A stretch of 64,000 nt of DNA, taken from positions 544,001-608,000 of the forward strand of contig CBDCVK010000010.1 in NCBI GenBank assembly GCA_965223005.1, written 5' to 3'. Each line of letters begins with the position of its first letter. Position 1 is the first letter of the stretch. Below the pieces are notes generated by a model. The model searched no databases, was not told where the DNA came from, and saw nothing but the letters and a program-made list of their open reading frames with translations. Of this stretch, positions 29,957-60,014 are shown piece by piece. The position numbers and the translations under genes are program-made. The DNA comes from Terriglobia bacterium (GTDB lineage: Bacteria; Acidobacteriota; Terriglobia; JAJPHL01; JAPKYU01).

Positions 29957-30030
29957 TGCCTGGTCGTTCAATGGTAGGACGCAGGACTTTGGATCCTGTT
30001 ATGGAGGTTCGAATCCTCCCCAGGCAGCCA
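29957..30030 (+). tRNA. tRNA-Gln (TTG)
   Basis: Cloverleaf: acceptor tgcctgg/ccaggca, anticodon arm cagga-ctTTGga-tcctg, GGTTCGAATCC T-arm, encoded CCA. Confidence 0.95.
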
Positions 30031-35556: not shown

Positions 35557-36687
35557 ATGACAGACATGACGATTTTCCCAGTTCGCTCGCATAAGCCAGT
35601 TCGCTTGCATAAGGGAGCTGGACGGATCATCCCTGCCGCCAGCTGGCCTGCCGGCAGCCGTGGTTTCTCCCTGGTGGAGTTGTTGGTTAGCATCGTAGTG
35701 CTGAGCATCATCCTGGGGGCGCTGATGCAGTTCATGAGTATGCTCCAGCGACGCTACACCCAGGCCCAGCGCACCAGCGGGATCGGGCAGACGGGCAAAT
35801 CGACCACGGACCTACTGGCCATGGACATCGGCCAGGCGGGTTTTTATAGGGGAAGGAGCACCACAAATTCGGCGGCCATCGCCATCGGCACCCAGACCGT
35901 CACGCTGGCCGATAGCACTGGTATTTTTCCGGGCAGCGTCATCATTGTGGACACCGGCATGGATCAGGAACCTGTACCGCTGTCAGCTGTGACTCATAGC
36001 AGCAACCAGGTCACCGGGCTTTTCCGGGTGGATCATGCCATCACGCGTCCAGTACGGCTCAGCGATGTGCCCTACCCTGAGGGAATCCTGGCCCCGGTGA
36101 CGAGAGATGCCACTGGCACTCTTATTGCCAACACCGCAGGCTCCAACGCGACTACTTTGAAACTCATGGGGGACTTCCGCGACGACGGCACGCTGCGCTA
36201 CGTTGAATACCGCTACAGCTCCGCCACCAGCAGCACGACGGCTTGCACCACGCCGCCTTGCGCTCTGTGGCGGTCCGACTCTTGCGTGCCTGGCACCGAG
36301 ACCGGTTGCACCATCACCACGCAGAATGCAGCAGTCATGGTAGCCGACAACCTGATGAACACGCCGACAGCGGGTGTGTTCAACTATTTCCTGCTGTGCC
36401 GTACCGGCACGCTTCCCACGCTCGCTTATGTCACGTATCTGAACACCTCGTACGCTACAGCGGTGACCCCTTGTGCTTCTGTGGCCCACTTTTACGTGCT
36501 AGGGGTCGAAGTGAACCTGCAACTGCGCACGCAAGCCTCGGTGGAGCGCGGAGCCGGCGGGACCACCACCATCGAAGTGCGGCAAACCTTTGCGCCGCGC
36601 AACATCCGGCACGCTCTGGAGGTCAGCCTGGACGGGCTGCAACGTTGGGTGCCTGACAAGCCCCCGGCTGTTCCGCTGGCGCCATAG
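35557..36687 (+). CDS. Type IV minor pilin, PilW-like (start uncertain)
   Basis: G|FSLVELLVSIVVL; DIGQAG; Cys/Thr-rich C-terminal part. Confidence 0.82.
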   Translation: MTDMTIFPVRSHKPVRLHKGAGRIIPAASWPAGSRGFSLVELLVSIVVLSIILGALMQFMSMLQRRYTQAQRTSGIGQTGKSTTDLLAMDIGQAGFYRGRSTTNSAAIAIGTQTVTLADSTGIFPGSVIIVDTGMDQEPVPLSAVTHSSNQVTGLFRVDHAITRPVRLSDVPYPEGILAPVTRDATGTLIANTAGSNATTLKLMGDFRDDGTLRYVEYRYSSATSSTTACTTPPCALWRSDSCVPGTETGCTITTQNAAVMVADNLMNTPTAGVFNYFLLCRTGTLPTLAYVTYLNTSYATAVTPCASVAHFYVLGVEVNLQLRTQASVERGAGGTTTIEVRQTFAPRNIRHALEVSLDGLQRWVPDKPPAVPLAP

Positions 36688-36700
36688 GAGGGGGGAGAAA

Positions 36701-38442
36701 ATGCACCGAACGCCGAACCCACAACCTGGCATAGCTGGCCCAGCTCAGAAGAGAAAAGACGAGCGCGGCATGGCCCTGGTCTTCGCCCTGATGGGCATCC
36801 TCATACTGTCAATGCTGGCGGCCGCCCTGCTGGTTGTGACCAACGCGGACACCCTTGCCAGCTTCAACTACAAGAACCAAATCCAGGGCAGCTATGTTGC
36901 CCTGGCCGGTGTGCATCGGACGGTGGACTGGTTCCGCGTTACTTACAGCCCGTGGCTCAACTCCGTGACGGGAAGTCCGCTCAGGGCGACCAACCCGCCG
37001 ATCCTCGCCACCACCTACGGGGGCACCTCGAACTCACCCACCCTCAGCAGCAACCCTGTCGTGCTGGGCGACAGCGCTAACTTCCCCACCGTCTCTTCCA
37101 ATACCATTGCGAACAGTTTCAGCAGCATGCGCAGCACCCTGAACACGATCGCGCTTGAAAACGCGACCGGCGACTTCACCATCAAGGACGCCACGCTGCT
37201 CTCTCATGACCGCTACAAGGCCTTCGATGGCGTGACGGACCGCATCGTCGAGCGCTGGCGGCTGCGCGTGCAGGGCAGGATAAGAGACGGGGCGGGCAGA
37301 GAGCTGGCTGTGGTAGAGGAGACCGCTGTCTTCCAGACGGCGCCACTTCCCATCTTCGGCAATGCGCTCCAGGGCCAGTGTTCACTGACAATGGTTGGCT
37401 CCCTCACCGTCGATTCCTTTGACTCGAGCAACGAACCTTACGGGGGCTCGAACCTGTTCACAGGGCCGGACGCGGGCGCCAACGTCGCCTCCAACTCTTT
37501 CACCGGCTCCTCGGGAAGCTCCGGCGTAATCAATGGAGACGTTTACTACGGCGCCACCCCGGACACCGCCGGGGGGTGCAGCAGCTCAGGCGAAAGCGTG
37601 ACCCACAGTATCGTACAAGGAGACGTCGAAGAGTACCCGTCGATGCCATACCCGCCGATTGTTCCGACGTTTACTACGGCGCCACCCCGGACACCGCCGG
37701 GGGGTGCAGCAGCTCAGGCGAAAGCGTGACCCACAGTATCGTACAAGGAGACGTCGAAGAGTACCCGTCGATGCCATACCCGCCGATTGTTCCGACGTTT
37801 ACTACCGCCACCATGAGCAAAGATTGTGCCGCCAAAAGCAGCTTCCACGTCAGTGGGGACTACTTCAGGTATACTCCAAATACTACCAGCACCAACAACA
37901 TGTCTACATGCGGCCTTACCGGTAACCAAGAGTTGCTGCTTACCGTTCCCGTCGTAGATGAGAGTGGTGGACCCGTCGCGCCAAACACGTTCTTCGTGGA
38001 AGGCATCAGCGTAGGTTCGGCGAATAATGTGGTGCGTGTTACCAAGTCAGGAAGCGGCGAACCCGGCACTTTGTGTTCGAGTGCCGACCCGAACACTGCT
38101 CGCTGCCCGAGAACGTCTCTTTATGTAAGTACCCTTTTGAATTTGGGTGGCGGTGGCTTACTTTCGGCATCGGGGGGCAATTGTGATCCCACCCGCTTTG
38201 CCGTTTACTACACCGGTACGGCCGACGCCACGTTAGGTGGGACCAGCGGATTCTGCGGCACCATCTACGCCCCCAATGCGAGGGTGACTATTCAGGGCAA
38301 CACAGTCGTCCATGGGGCCATCACAGCCAAGGAGGTAGTCACCGGAGGCGGCGTACAAATCCACTATGACCTGGCACTGGCGCGGATGAAAGTCATGGTC
38401 GCTCCGTTCCGAATCATCAATCAGAGCCGCGACGTATTCTGA
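36701..38442 (+). pseudogene. PilX-like minor pilin with a large C-terminal domain, frameshifted by a 128-bp tandem duplication
   Basis: G|MALVF motif (no Glu5, typical of PilX/GspK); removing one 128-bp copy gives an open 537-aa frame ending GTIYAPNA..IHYD. Confidence 0.8.
37538..37805 (+). repeat. Exact 128-bp tandem duplication bounded by 12-bp GACGTTTACTAC
   Basis: 12-mer at 37538, 37666 and 37794; intervening 128-bp units read identical. Confidence 0.92.
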
Positions 38443-57050: not shown

Positions 57051-60014
57051 CTATGGCCCGTCGCTGGCTTGGTTGCCGGCCAGCGCAGAGAAGCGGCGGC
57101 GGGTCTCCTCGGACCAGCCGGGAATCACTTCGGCCACCGTTCCCCCCGCGTTGAGCAGAACCGACAGAGGCACGGAGAGTTCGTCGGAAGCATACAGCTG
57201 TTCGACGGCCGGAATCCCACCGATATAGATCGGATAGCGGACGCCGGTGTCGGCCACAAACCCGCGGACGTTGGCGTCGGCTTCGGTGTCCACATTGAGG
57301 CCGATCAAGTCGACCCCTCCGGCTGAAAGCTTGGGGCGGAGTTTTTCCAGCTCCGGCATCTCCAGGATGCAGGGCGCGCACCAAGTGGCCCAGACATTGA
57401 TCAGCGCCCGGCGGCCCGGGCGAAGCTGTTTGTAGAGGGAAGTTGCCTCTCCGTCCAATGTCTTCAGCGCCAGATCGGGCATGGGGCGGCCGACGCTGAT
57501 CTTCAGCTTGCGCGCAAAGGTTTCGGCGCGAGTGAGCGGATCGGGCAGTTGGGCGCGGCCGAGGGCAAGCGTTTCGGCGCGACCGGCGCCGGCACGCAGC
57601 AGCAGCGTCGAGCCGGCCCGGGCGTCGGCCTGGAAACGCTCGACTTCCCCATTGGGCCAGGTCACCTCGATCCATTCGGCGCGCTCCTCCGATCCCAGCC
57701 CGAACAGCAGGCGCGGGTCGTGCTGCGCAATGAAGCCTGAGCCGCCGCTTTTGACTTTGGTCACCGTGCCCGCCGAAGTGCGCAGTCGCACAACCGCGCC
57801 ATAGGCGTCGCGCCCCAGCGCGGGGCTGCCTTCCAGCACGATCCGCAGGAAATGGTTGGCCTGCCCGATATTGTTGCGAAACAGCAGGTGTGCTTCCCCC
57901 TGGATGGTGGTTAGAAACACGTCCAGATCGCCGTCGTTATCGAAATCGGCAAACACCGCCGCGCGGCCATCGCTAATCGAGTCAATTCCAGAGATTCCGG
58001 AGACGTCCAAATACTTGCCCGTGCCCAGGTTCAGGGAGAGCAGATCGCGTTCGTACCCGCTAAATGAGAATCCCTGTTGGGCGATCAGGCGCATTTGGTC
58101 GGCACGGAGCGCGCCCTGCCCCTGTTTCGGATTCTTGTCTTGCGCCACGACCTGACGCCAGAACTGACTTCAGGTGTCCTTCATGGAACTGCCGGAGAGG
58201 AACCCATTGGGGGTCAGCAGATCCTCCCAGCCATCGTTATCGAAGTCGAGGAACCCACCCCCCCAGGCCCATCCGCCGGAGAAGCCAGCGCTCTCGGCGG
58301 TCACGTCCCGGTAGTAGCCGTTGCCGGCGTTCCGATACAGGTTGTTGCCCGAGGCCAGCTTCCGGTACACGTTGTTCCCGGCGCCAGCGCCGGGAAACAG
58401 CCGCGACACGATGCGGTTGCCTGCGGTCGAGGACATGTTGGTGACGTGCAGATCGAGCTCTCCGTCGTTGTCGTAATCGCCGAAGGAGACGCCCATGCCG
58501 TTGCCGGGGTCCACGACGCCGCGCTCCCGTGCCTCGTTCACGAACTTGTCCCCGTGGTGGATGAACAGGGCGTTTTCACCAAAGTCGTTGGCCACATAGA
58601 GGTCCAGGCGCCCGTCTCTGTTGACGTCGGCGAAGGCGGCCGCGTAACTCCAGCGCCGCTCGTCCACGCCCCAGCGGGCCGCCTCCTCGCGAAAGGTGCC
58701 ATCGCCCTGATTGATGTACAGCAGGTTCGGCGTGCCGTTGGTGGCCCGGTACCAGGAATCTGGCGTTACCCGGCCGAAGTGGTTGTAGCAGGCAACGTAG
58801 ATGTCGGCATATCCGTCGCCGTTCACGTCTCCGGCCACGGCGCTGAACCCAATCGCCTGCCGGCCTACCCCGGCCTTCCAGGAAACATCGCGAAGTTCCA
58901 GTTTCCCGTCCGGCACCTGCCGGTTCTCCAAAAGCATCTGGTGCCCAACCGAGGAGAGGAACACGTCGGAATCGCCGTCATTGTCGTAATCGAGAACCAG
59001 GGGGGCCACCCCGCGGTCGAGCAGCTCCACGCCCGCTTCCAGGGAGGCGTCACGGAACCGGCCTTGTGCGTCGTTCAAATAAAGATAGTTGCGATCCGGC
59101 GAGGTCACGAACAGATCGATCCAGCCGTCAAGATTGAAATCCCCGGCCGCCGCCCCGTACCAGGCGAAGCTGGGTCCTCCCCGCTCCGCAAAAGCAGGCA
59201 GGCTGGCGGCCACGCCGGCCGGCACGGAGACTTCCGAGAACAGATCGGTAGTGGCCAGCATGGAATCCAGGCTCAGCAACTCGAACGATTCAAACTGCCA
59301 GCGCCCGCTGGCCGCCCGACGGACCGCGATCGCCGCCGCTCCCCGCGTCCATTCGCGCCGCCCGTTAGTGTCTCGGCCTACCAGGTAAAACTTCAGGCGC
59401 GCCGTTCCTTCGGAACCCACCTTGGCGGTGGGAACATTGGCCTCCATCTCAACATCAGCCGAATCAGCGAATTGGGCTCCCGCCACCTTGAAGCGCGCGT
59501 CTTCGATCGCCTCGAAGTGATCCAGGAAGGCGAATAACGCACCCAAGAACTCCTCCCCGGTCATGCTGTGTTTCACCTCGCGGGAGCGGTCGTTGCGTTG
59601 CGAGGAGTGGCGGGGACCCTGAGCATCCGCCGTCCATCCATGCCTGGCGACCCATCTCACTTCTTTCTGGACCGGCAGCGGAGTGGACCAGAAGGGGGTA
59701 GCCGACAACTGGGCGGGAACGTACTCGACCACTTGGTGCTGGTCCCGATCCCGCACGGCGAGTGACAGATCCAACATGTCGTTGGCCAACGATTCGGACA
59801 ACTCCTCTACCACTTCCAGCCGCGCCGCATCCGCCGTTGCATCCGTCGTTGGATCCGTGGTTCCGGCGCGCTTGGGAGCCGAGGCCGCGGGCGTTTCGCC
59901 CTGCGCCGAATCGGCCGGCGCCGCCGGGGGCTGCGCCGCTGGCTTCTGCGCAAACAAGATCGCTGCCAGGAGCAGGCAAATCAGGAAGATTGTTGATTGT
60001 CCCAGCTTGTTCAT
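57051..60014 (-). CDS. Predicted secreted selenoprotein: N-terminal domain + FG-GAP/CRTAC1 propeller + ASPIC/UnbV + TlpA-like thioredoxin (UGA at codon 615 read as Sec)
   Basis: ORFs 58170-60059 and 57051-58148 are in one frame, separated only by TGA; DxDxDG repeats on both sides; LLFGLG..IEVTWPNG ASPIC motif; WATWCAPC; SECIS-like hairpin after the UGA. Confidence 0.75.
58137..58169 (-). ncRNA. Bacterial SECIS-like hairpin
   Basis: UGA-AGUCAGUUCUG-GCGUCA-GGUCG-UGGCGC; 6-bp stem starts after an 11-nt spacer, loop begins GGU. Confidence 0.65.

Follow-up and report, generated by a model that had tools for sequence, protein, structure and literature searches.

A conserved hairpin behind an in-frame UGA is very probably a bacterial selenocysteine insertion sequence in a CRTAC1-like propeller gene of Terriglobia

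Does an in-frame UGA in an acidobacterial gene end the protein, or does it encode an amino acid? The question is raised by a 64,000-nucleotide (nt) stretch of Terriglobia bacterium DNA (contig CBDCVK010000010.1; hereafter the window). On its minus strand, a UGA (58170..58172) lies at codon 615 of an open reading frame (ORF) that reads through it for 987 amino acids to a TAG terminal stop (57051..60014). This ORF would appear in databases as two genes, of 614 and about 360 amino acids. The original prediction described, directly behind the UGA, a hairpin resembling the selenocysteine insertion sequence (SECIS) of Escherichia coli fdhF and took it as independent support for recoding. That view has held up: the hairpin covaries among homologues, only UGA is conserved at the site, and the element fits the published model of the bacterial SECIS (bSECIS) in 97 of 98 sequences. 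We conclude that the hairpin is very probably a bacterial SECIS that directs selenocysteine (Sec) to codon 615 of one selenoprotein gene.

Hairpin positions are counted with the U of UGA as position 1. Read from 58172 to 58137, the minus strand gives UGA, 11 nt, GCGUCA (15-20), the loop GGUCG (21-25), and UGGCGC (26-31). The sequence therefore carries the 6-base pair (bp) stem with one U-G pair and the GGUCG loop that had been described, with the addition that it lies on the minus strand, which had not been stated. The element is a 17-nt unbulged stem-loop with an N-G-U-N-G pentaloop (58142..58158), beginning 11 nt past the UGA; its offset and length are those of fdhF, as had been claimed, both elements spanning positions 15-31 (E. 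coli NC_000913.3). The bare 17-mer folds at -7.3 kcal/mol. In the minimum free energy (MFE) fold of the 36-mer (-10.8 kcal/mol), a 3-bp UCU/AGA extension is added beneath a G.A mismatch. The proposed GUUCU/AGAC extension forms in part in the window, where its 3' arm occupies 58137..58141, but it lacks conservation: of the 98 sequences compared below, 45 have pair 13-33, 26 have pair 12-34, and 36 have pair 11-35. With upstream context included (58100-58180), the MFE fold switches to a competing pairing. A strict descriptor (UGA, 11 nt, the six window pairs, and G-U at 22-23) matched none of the window's 1,667 other TGA triplets; among the 31,369 TGA triplets of the fetched loci, it matched 3. 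An Rfam scan of the window at gathering thresholds returned no SECIS family match.

Homologous loci were collected by a DNA census, in which contigs were scanned with a pattern made from upstream codons only; at least 115 loci were obtained. UGA was found at the site in 97 of the 115 loci listed, and UAA or UAG in none. The remaining loci were one family member with CGG (L032) and 17 unrelated or distant matches. The pattern requires Asp-Thr before the site and hence under-samples sense-codon relatives, so that the ratio is not an estimate of prevalence. The carriers are metagenome-assembled genomes (MAGs) of Acidobacteriota (Blastocatellia, Terriglobia, and others), Planctomycetota, Latescibacterota, Eisenbacteria, and Handelsmanbacteria, and the nearest relatives of the window protein come from Acidobacteriota. 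A true stop would be expected to drift to UAA and UAG, as the terminal stops of the same genes do (TGA 28, TAG 21, and TAA 18 in 67 closed frames, one row being L032); the absence of both at the UGA site counts against a genuine stop. In protein databases, all 120 of the nearest proteins listed for the N-terminal half end at the residue just before the UGA, with lengths up to 1,075 allowed. The same holds for 33 of the 150 best 50%-cluster representatives, and gene callers predict separate proteins for the C-terminal half. Directly after the UGA, Ser is encoded by AGY in 92 sequences and by TCG in 5, and F/Y, W, and R are conserved as in the sense-codon relatives. This Ser codon choice and the conserved residues indicate that the segment 3' of the UGA is translated, and comparison thus places protein-level selection on both sides of the codon. 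The base after the UGA, which stems from the AGY codon of Ser +1, is A in 92 of 98 sequences; by comparison, Ser at codon -8 is encoded by AGY in only 9 of 77. The A may have been kept because it avoids a strong termination context, or it may simply be inherited.

The hairpin was then compared in 98 sequences, comprising the 97 UGA loci of the census and the window. All six pairs form in 89 sequences, five in 4, and four in 5, against 4.6 sequences with all six expected from synonymous recoding with their own codon usage; the sequences are related, and 89 against 4.6 is therefore an effect size, not a p-value. Among the 91 distinct rows, 97.4% of cells are paired, none of 500 shuffles reached any of five measures, and slid registers gave 18-71%. 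RNAalifold independently recovered the inner four pairs. Pair 18-28, between the wobble base of the Arg codon and base 1 of codon +9, is formed in all 98 sequences (C-G 60, U-A 31, G-U 4, U-G 2, and G-C 1). Because it is maintained, residue +9 switches between Ala, Thr, and Ser along with the Arg codon. When the hairpin codons were left out of the tree building, 6 changes were mapped to each side of this pair and 7 to the pair itself. This corresponds to five double changes plus two wobble steps, the U-G of the window being one of the latter. The loop-flanking positions 21 and 25 vary independently (6 + 5 = 11 changes). Third positions show 5-7 changes in the stem vs 20-40 at upstream four-fold sites. 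Hence, covariation among UGA homologues and suppressed synonymous change in the WRQVVA codons, the two signatures that the original prediction had proposed to look for, are both present. G22 and U23 are invariant in all 98 sequences, and beyond them invariance is limited to a few bases of the stem; position 21 is G in 28, C in 58, and A in 11. As had been noted for the window, no bulged U is present: in 97 of 98 sequences, a G at position 17 pairs with position 29. At the two true sense-codon sites with DNA (L032 and a paralogue in L008), a small control, the hairpin is absent, with 4 and 3 pairs at -1.0 and -1.6 kcal/mol; it is therefore not shared equally by sense-codon homologues, which would have spoken against a role in recoding. 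The most divergent UGA carrier (L040 4983-5027, Planctomycetota) has the downstream peptide V-P-F-W-K-S-V-V-P and keeps an apical stem with the loop G-U at 22-23, formed by different pairs.

The consensus bSECIS model comprises a loop of 3-9 nt, a stem of 4-16 bp, a spacing of 16-37 nt, an MFE of at most -7.5 kcal/mol, and G (then G or U) within the first two loop positions (PMC13188914). Its four criteria were coded by hand from the published model, with the energy taken from the best sub-window. The UGA-to-loop spacing, 17 nt in the window, and the stem were within the model in 98 of 98 sequences, and the energy and all four criteria together in 97 of 98.

Comparison also revealed Cys counterparts. 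P0272, the closest full-length relative, has the same architecture and Cys recorded at the UGA column, and is either a true Cys form or a Sec protein deposited as Cys. Cys also occupies this column in P0284, P0285, and P0145 inside the clade and in P0203 and P0250 outside it. Furthermore, a Blastocatellia MAG contig (L028, JAYVZE010000190.1; 11220-13060, minus strand) carries two more in-frame-UGA genes directly beside the family gene. One is a DUF3179 gene with UxxC (Pfam, 240.7 bits) and the other is a TIGR01926/AhpD-like gene with CxxU (95.7 bits; cut-off 81.8), and both are catalogued selenoprotein kinds (PMC13188914). In both genes, the UGA is followed by an unbulged 6-7 bp stem with a loop G-U at 20-21 or 21-22. 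The L028 contig thus appears to hold a three-selenoprotein cluster with unbulged G-U-loop hairpins throughout. Near its family copy, locus L049 carries a Cys-form DUF3179 gene. Some planctomycetes are reported to carry the complete set of Sec genes (PMC4807772), and selenoprotein genes are reported from an acidobacterium (PMC12013277).

From these comparisons, we infer SelB binding, Sec insertion, and export as follows. A complex of SelB, GTP, and Sec-tRNA(Sec) would bind the apical G-U loop, held at a distance of 11 nt and one 6-bp helix from the UGA. The invariant loop G22-U23 (58150..58151) is the predicted SelB contact; it is the equivalent of G23-U24 in fdhF and also forms the first two bases of a Val codon. 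Delivery of Sec at codon 615 would yield a single exported protein of approximately 105 kDa. Without Sec delivery, release factor 2 would terminate translation, leaving a 614-residue product that misses the last propeller blade.

Several observations weigh against this interpretation. Judged from the single sequence, the window hairpin is marginally above chance (z -1.60; 11 of 200 shuffles fold equally well), and G22-U23 is also fixed by the conserved Val. U17, which is absent here, is essential in E. coli fdhF (PMC8659212). The sense-codon DNA control comprises 2 of 22 sites; the other 20, either misaligned repeats or a distant relative, were excluded, as was one further distant plasmid match (31% identity). 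Unlike in most selenoproteins, Cys occupies the column in 4 of 38 in-clade sense-codon relatives, the rest having S, R, E, A, D, or other residues, and the family alignment shows no conserved partner Cys near the UGA site. A tblastn search with E. coli SelA, SelB, SelD, and FdhF against the window and 115 loci (1.27 Mb of flanks) gave 0 matches, while the positive control worked, and no tRNA-Sec was found in the window (Rfam, ARAGORN) or in the 60 loci scanned. The search for Sec machinery reached the window and flanks, not whole genomes, and the Sec trait is evidenced for one carrier contig (L028). In addition, a few carriers are damaged: L076 and L092 have frames broken near the UGA with the hairpin kept, and are apparently recent pseudogenes or assembly errors.

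Among the alternatives, the one that survives best is SelB-independent programmed read-through, in which the hairpin stalls the ribosome and a near-cognate tRNA (Trp, Cys, or Arg) reads the UGA, so that short and long isoforms are made. An A following UGA is a leaky context, and it is present in 92 of 98 sequences; the rarity of Cys in the column and the lack of visible Sec machinery within the window would also suit this explanation. Nevertheless, it leaves aside that spacing and loop G-U fit the bSECIS model and that similar hairpins follow the UGA of the two known-type selenoprotein genes on L028. Trp stands at the column in none of the listed sense-codon relatives, and the short isoform would miss a propeller blade in the structural model. 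We consider read-through improbable.

Still less probable, to a degree that makes it hard to uphold, is an arrangement of two genes, in which the UGA is a real stop, the C-terminal half restarts at a conserved GUG (codon +8), and the hairpin regulates re-initiation. Codon +8 is indeed GTG in 91 of 98 sequences and CTG or TTG in 6, and gene callers do predict separate C-half proteins. The T and G of this codon are, however, accounted for by stem pairing, and a Shine-Dalgarno-like tetramer 4-16 nt before codon +8 is absent in 98 of 98. The seven codons between UGA and GUG are under amino-acid selection, the start of the C-half is not signal-peptide-like, and the drift to UAA or UAG that a true stop should show, as at the terminal stops, is missing. 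Re-initiation at the GUG was rejected.

The hairpin might instead be a by-product of the conserved S-x-F-W-R-x-V-V motif in GC-rich DNA, with no RNA function, recoding being signalled otherwise; we regard this as largely refuted and give it hardly any weight. The modest single-sequence z score agrees with it, and synonymous recoding of the window's own codons yields six pairs 11% of the time. Across the 98 sequences, this explanation meets 89 complete stems where 4.6 are expected, five double changes with a residue +9 (Ala/Thr/Ser) that tracks the Arg wobble base, and the 5-7 third-position changes in the stem vs 20-40 upstream; at the two sense-codon sites, which share the motif, 4 and 3 of the six pairs form. 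Genome-wide reassignment of UGA (to Trp or Gly), a sequencing error, or a pseudogene stop has nothing in its favour beyond the in-frame stop itself and is just as negligible, since many long ORFs of the window terminate in TGA and the same UGA occurs in 97 independent contigs of several phyla; the DNA census refutes this explanation.

A bacterial SECIS and Sec at codon 615 thus remain the preferred explanation, and the predicted residue can be placed in the protein. The window protein has Pfam matches above gathering scores to FG-GAP repeats, ASPIC/UnbV, and a Redoxin/AhpC-TSA domain. All of its features lie on the minus strand. The gene begins with a probable signal peptide (59949..60014), judged by eye from a charged N-terminus and a hydrophobic core, and its product is probably exported. 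An N-terminal alpha/beta domain without a family assignment (59253..59840), with Lys176 at 59487-59489, precedes a CRTAC1-like FG-GAP/VCBS beta-propeller (57864..59246; Pfam FG-GAP_3), which spans the UGA. An ASPIC/UnbV domain (57579..57860; Pfam PF07593, 52.6 bits) and a TlpA/ResA-like thioredoxin domain (57081..57527; CxxC at 57369-57380) follow. An AlphaFold2 model of residues 50-987, built on a 142-row alignment, had a predicted local distance difference test score (pLDDT) of 94.7 and a predicted template modelling score of 0.94. The best solved structural relative of the protein is CRTAC1 (PDB 9ETN), with which the propeller (model residues 208-668) aligns over 451 residues at Z 43.8, a root-mean-square deviation of 2.3, and 25% identity. 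In this model, the UGA residue (model residue 566) opens a helix that belongs to a helical insertion of the propeller, located before the last blade. The last blade is encoded 3' of the UGA, and a product stopping there would accordingly have an incomplete propeller. Folding the N-terminal domain from its sequence alone gave a poor model (pLDDT 44.7), which was set aside. For this domain, Pfam at E <= 1 gave sub-threshold matches only, including SnoaL_4 at E 0.13 in one homologue, and the Atlas gave unnamed clusters only.

Two features of the protein accompany the UGA. Of the 64 full-length UGA members, 62 retain CxxC and 61 retain Lys176; of the 38 sense-codon relatives, 6 retain CxxC and 3 retain Lys176, one of the three being the Cys form P0272. 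Across 8 independent pairs, CxxC went with the UGA in 5.1 on average (median p 0.06) and Lys176 in 6.7 (median p 0.016), the opposite averaging 0.0. The sense-codon forms fall in several places inside UGA clades, by FastTree and by a quick IQ-TREE run (12 changes, 9 forced by starred branches). With the outgroup used, this placement is most simply read as repeated loss of the UGA, although the direction is unproven. Loss of Sec would then accompany loss of the thioredoxin domain and of Lys176. We suggest that Sec615 is the nucleophile, or reactive residue, of an active site to which Lys176 also contributes, by helping to stabilise Sec615 or the substrate. The fused CxxC thioredoxin domain would then return the selenol to its reduced form after oxidation or linkage to the substrate. 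On these sequence patterns, an extracytoplasmic oxidoreductase, in which Sec615 reacts together with Lys176 and the thioredoxin domain recycles the selenol, is somewhat favoured. The CxxC-UGA coupling is not significant at 0.05, and two UGA carriers (L012 and L052) lose CxxC, which tells the other way; modelling the thioredoxin domain in complex with the remainder of P0272 scored 0.00, which speaks neither for nor against the proposal. We hold it an even chance that the family founds a selenoenzyme class on a non-thioredoxin scaffold, a CRTAC1-like propeller, with a lone Sec at a helix N-terminus, a Lys from a second domain, and a built-in CxxC reductant. In this proposal, Sec would be ancestral in a large aerobic soil and marine clade (Acidobacteriota, Planctomycetota, and candidate phyla) and would have been lost repeatedly to inert residues, along with the thioredoxin domain. 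If true, the catalysis of bacterial ASPIC/UnbV proteins would become approachable for the first time, and the SelB of the carrier lineages would be reading an unbulged SECIS dialect of the form N-G-U-N-N.

The neighbourhoods of 70 loci were surveyed; other FG-GAP proteins recurred in 23 of them and a nitrilase-like gene in 11, and no other neighbour recurred. The neighbouring FG-GAP/ASPIC proteins are often directly downstream of the family gene, and many have 1,050-1,250 amino acids (e.g., L059 11260-14725). The window copy sits downstream of glycine cleavage genes, without such FG-GAP/ASPIC or nitrilase-like neighbours. Elsewhere in the window, a tandem direct duplication (37541-37760) lies at the 3' end of the ORF at 36515-37729; its 128-bp period is not divisible by three, and it is possibly an assembly artefact. 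The sole tRNA of the window is tRNA-Gln(TTG) at 29957-30030. A promoter and terminator scan gave chance-level results, and no other credible selenoprotein candidate was found within the window.

A selenoprotein family on a propeller scaffold appears to be undescribed, while the RNA signal itself is conventional and of a known kind, though with unusually strong support. Table 1 of a 119-family 2026 catalogue has no FG-GAP, VCBS, CRTAC, or UnbV entry (PMC13188914); according to this review, unvalidated candidates are listed by Deng et al. 2026. FG-GAP, VCBS, CRTAC, and UnbV are not mentioned in deep-Sep, the BSepDB main text, or SelCysML. Among the matches listed for literature pairing selenoprotein or selenocysteine with ASPIC, CRTAC1, FG-GAP, UnbV, or VCBS, nothing was relevant; a prior supplementary mention is possible. 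In NCBIfam 20.0, no model scored above its cut-off for the window protein or 9 relatives. The family, which is split into two fragments in protein databases, occurs in at least 97 species-level genomes; it has about 1,000 residues, is probably exported, and has its predicted Sec outside CxxU/UxxC. Since Cys homologues are rare, screens for Cys/Sec pairs would tend to miss such a family. It suggests selenium use beyond formate dehydrogenase in abundant soil and marine Acidobacteriota and Planctomycetota. It also offers a testable active site (Sec615, Lys176, and CxxC) for a propeller family without known chemistry, and a natural SECIS series for how SelB recognises an element without the U17 bulge.

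At the protein level, the family resembles the CRTAC1 / ASPIC-UnbV FG-GAP proteins (9ETN; NCBI 'CRTAC1 family protein') in combining a propeller with an ASPIC/UnbV domain. It differs from them in an extra N-terminal domain, the helical insertion with the UGA residue, and the C-terminal CxxC thioredoxin. With thioredoxin-fold selenoproteins (the UGC-containing TlpA family, NF041054 with WAxxUGC, Redoxin with UxxC, and Trx7/PDZ), it shares a TlpA/ResA-like domain and a predicted Sec. In contrast to these, the motif here is a plain CxxC, the predicted Sec lies 264 residues upstream, in the propeller, and the window protein scores 38.6 against NF041054, whose cut-off is 300. At the RNA level, there is no difference in kind from the consensus bSECIS model; the element here is in a fixed register and tightly constrained, with RNA pairing dictating amino-acid choice. 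Like the fdhF SECIS (E. coli NC_000913.3), it lies inside the coding region, begins 11 nt past the UGA, and has 17 nt. Also like fdhF, it has six pairs from stem base to loop and an apical G-U, once the U17 bulge of fdhF (PMC8659212) is discounted. The CAGGUC likeness stressed in the original prediction is real as a one-base shift (start at 20 in fdhF and at 19 in the window) but incidental in significance, since CAGGUC is present in under a third of homologues and G21 in only 28 of 98. The family element has a 5-nt N-G-U-N-G loop where fdhF has a GGUC loop, places G-U at 22-23 instead of 23-24, has no conserved lower stem, and lacks the bulged U17 by which membership of the fdhF type was judged. 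By sequence comparison, therefore, the family element is one that would work like the fdhF SECIS but is not of the fdhF type.

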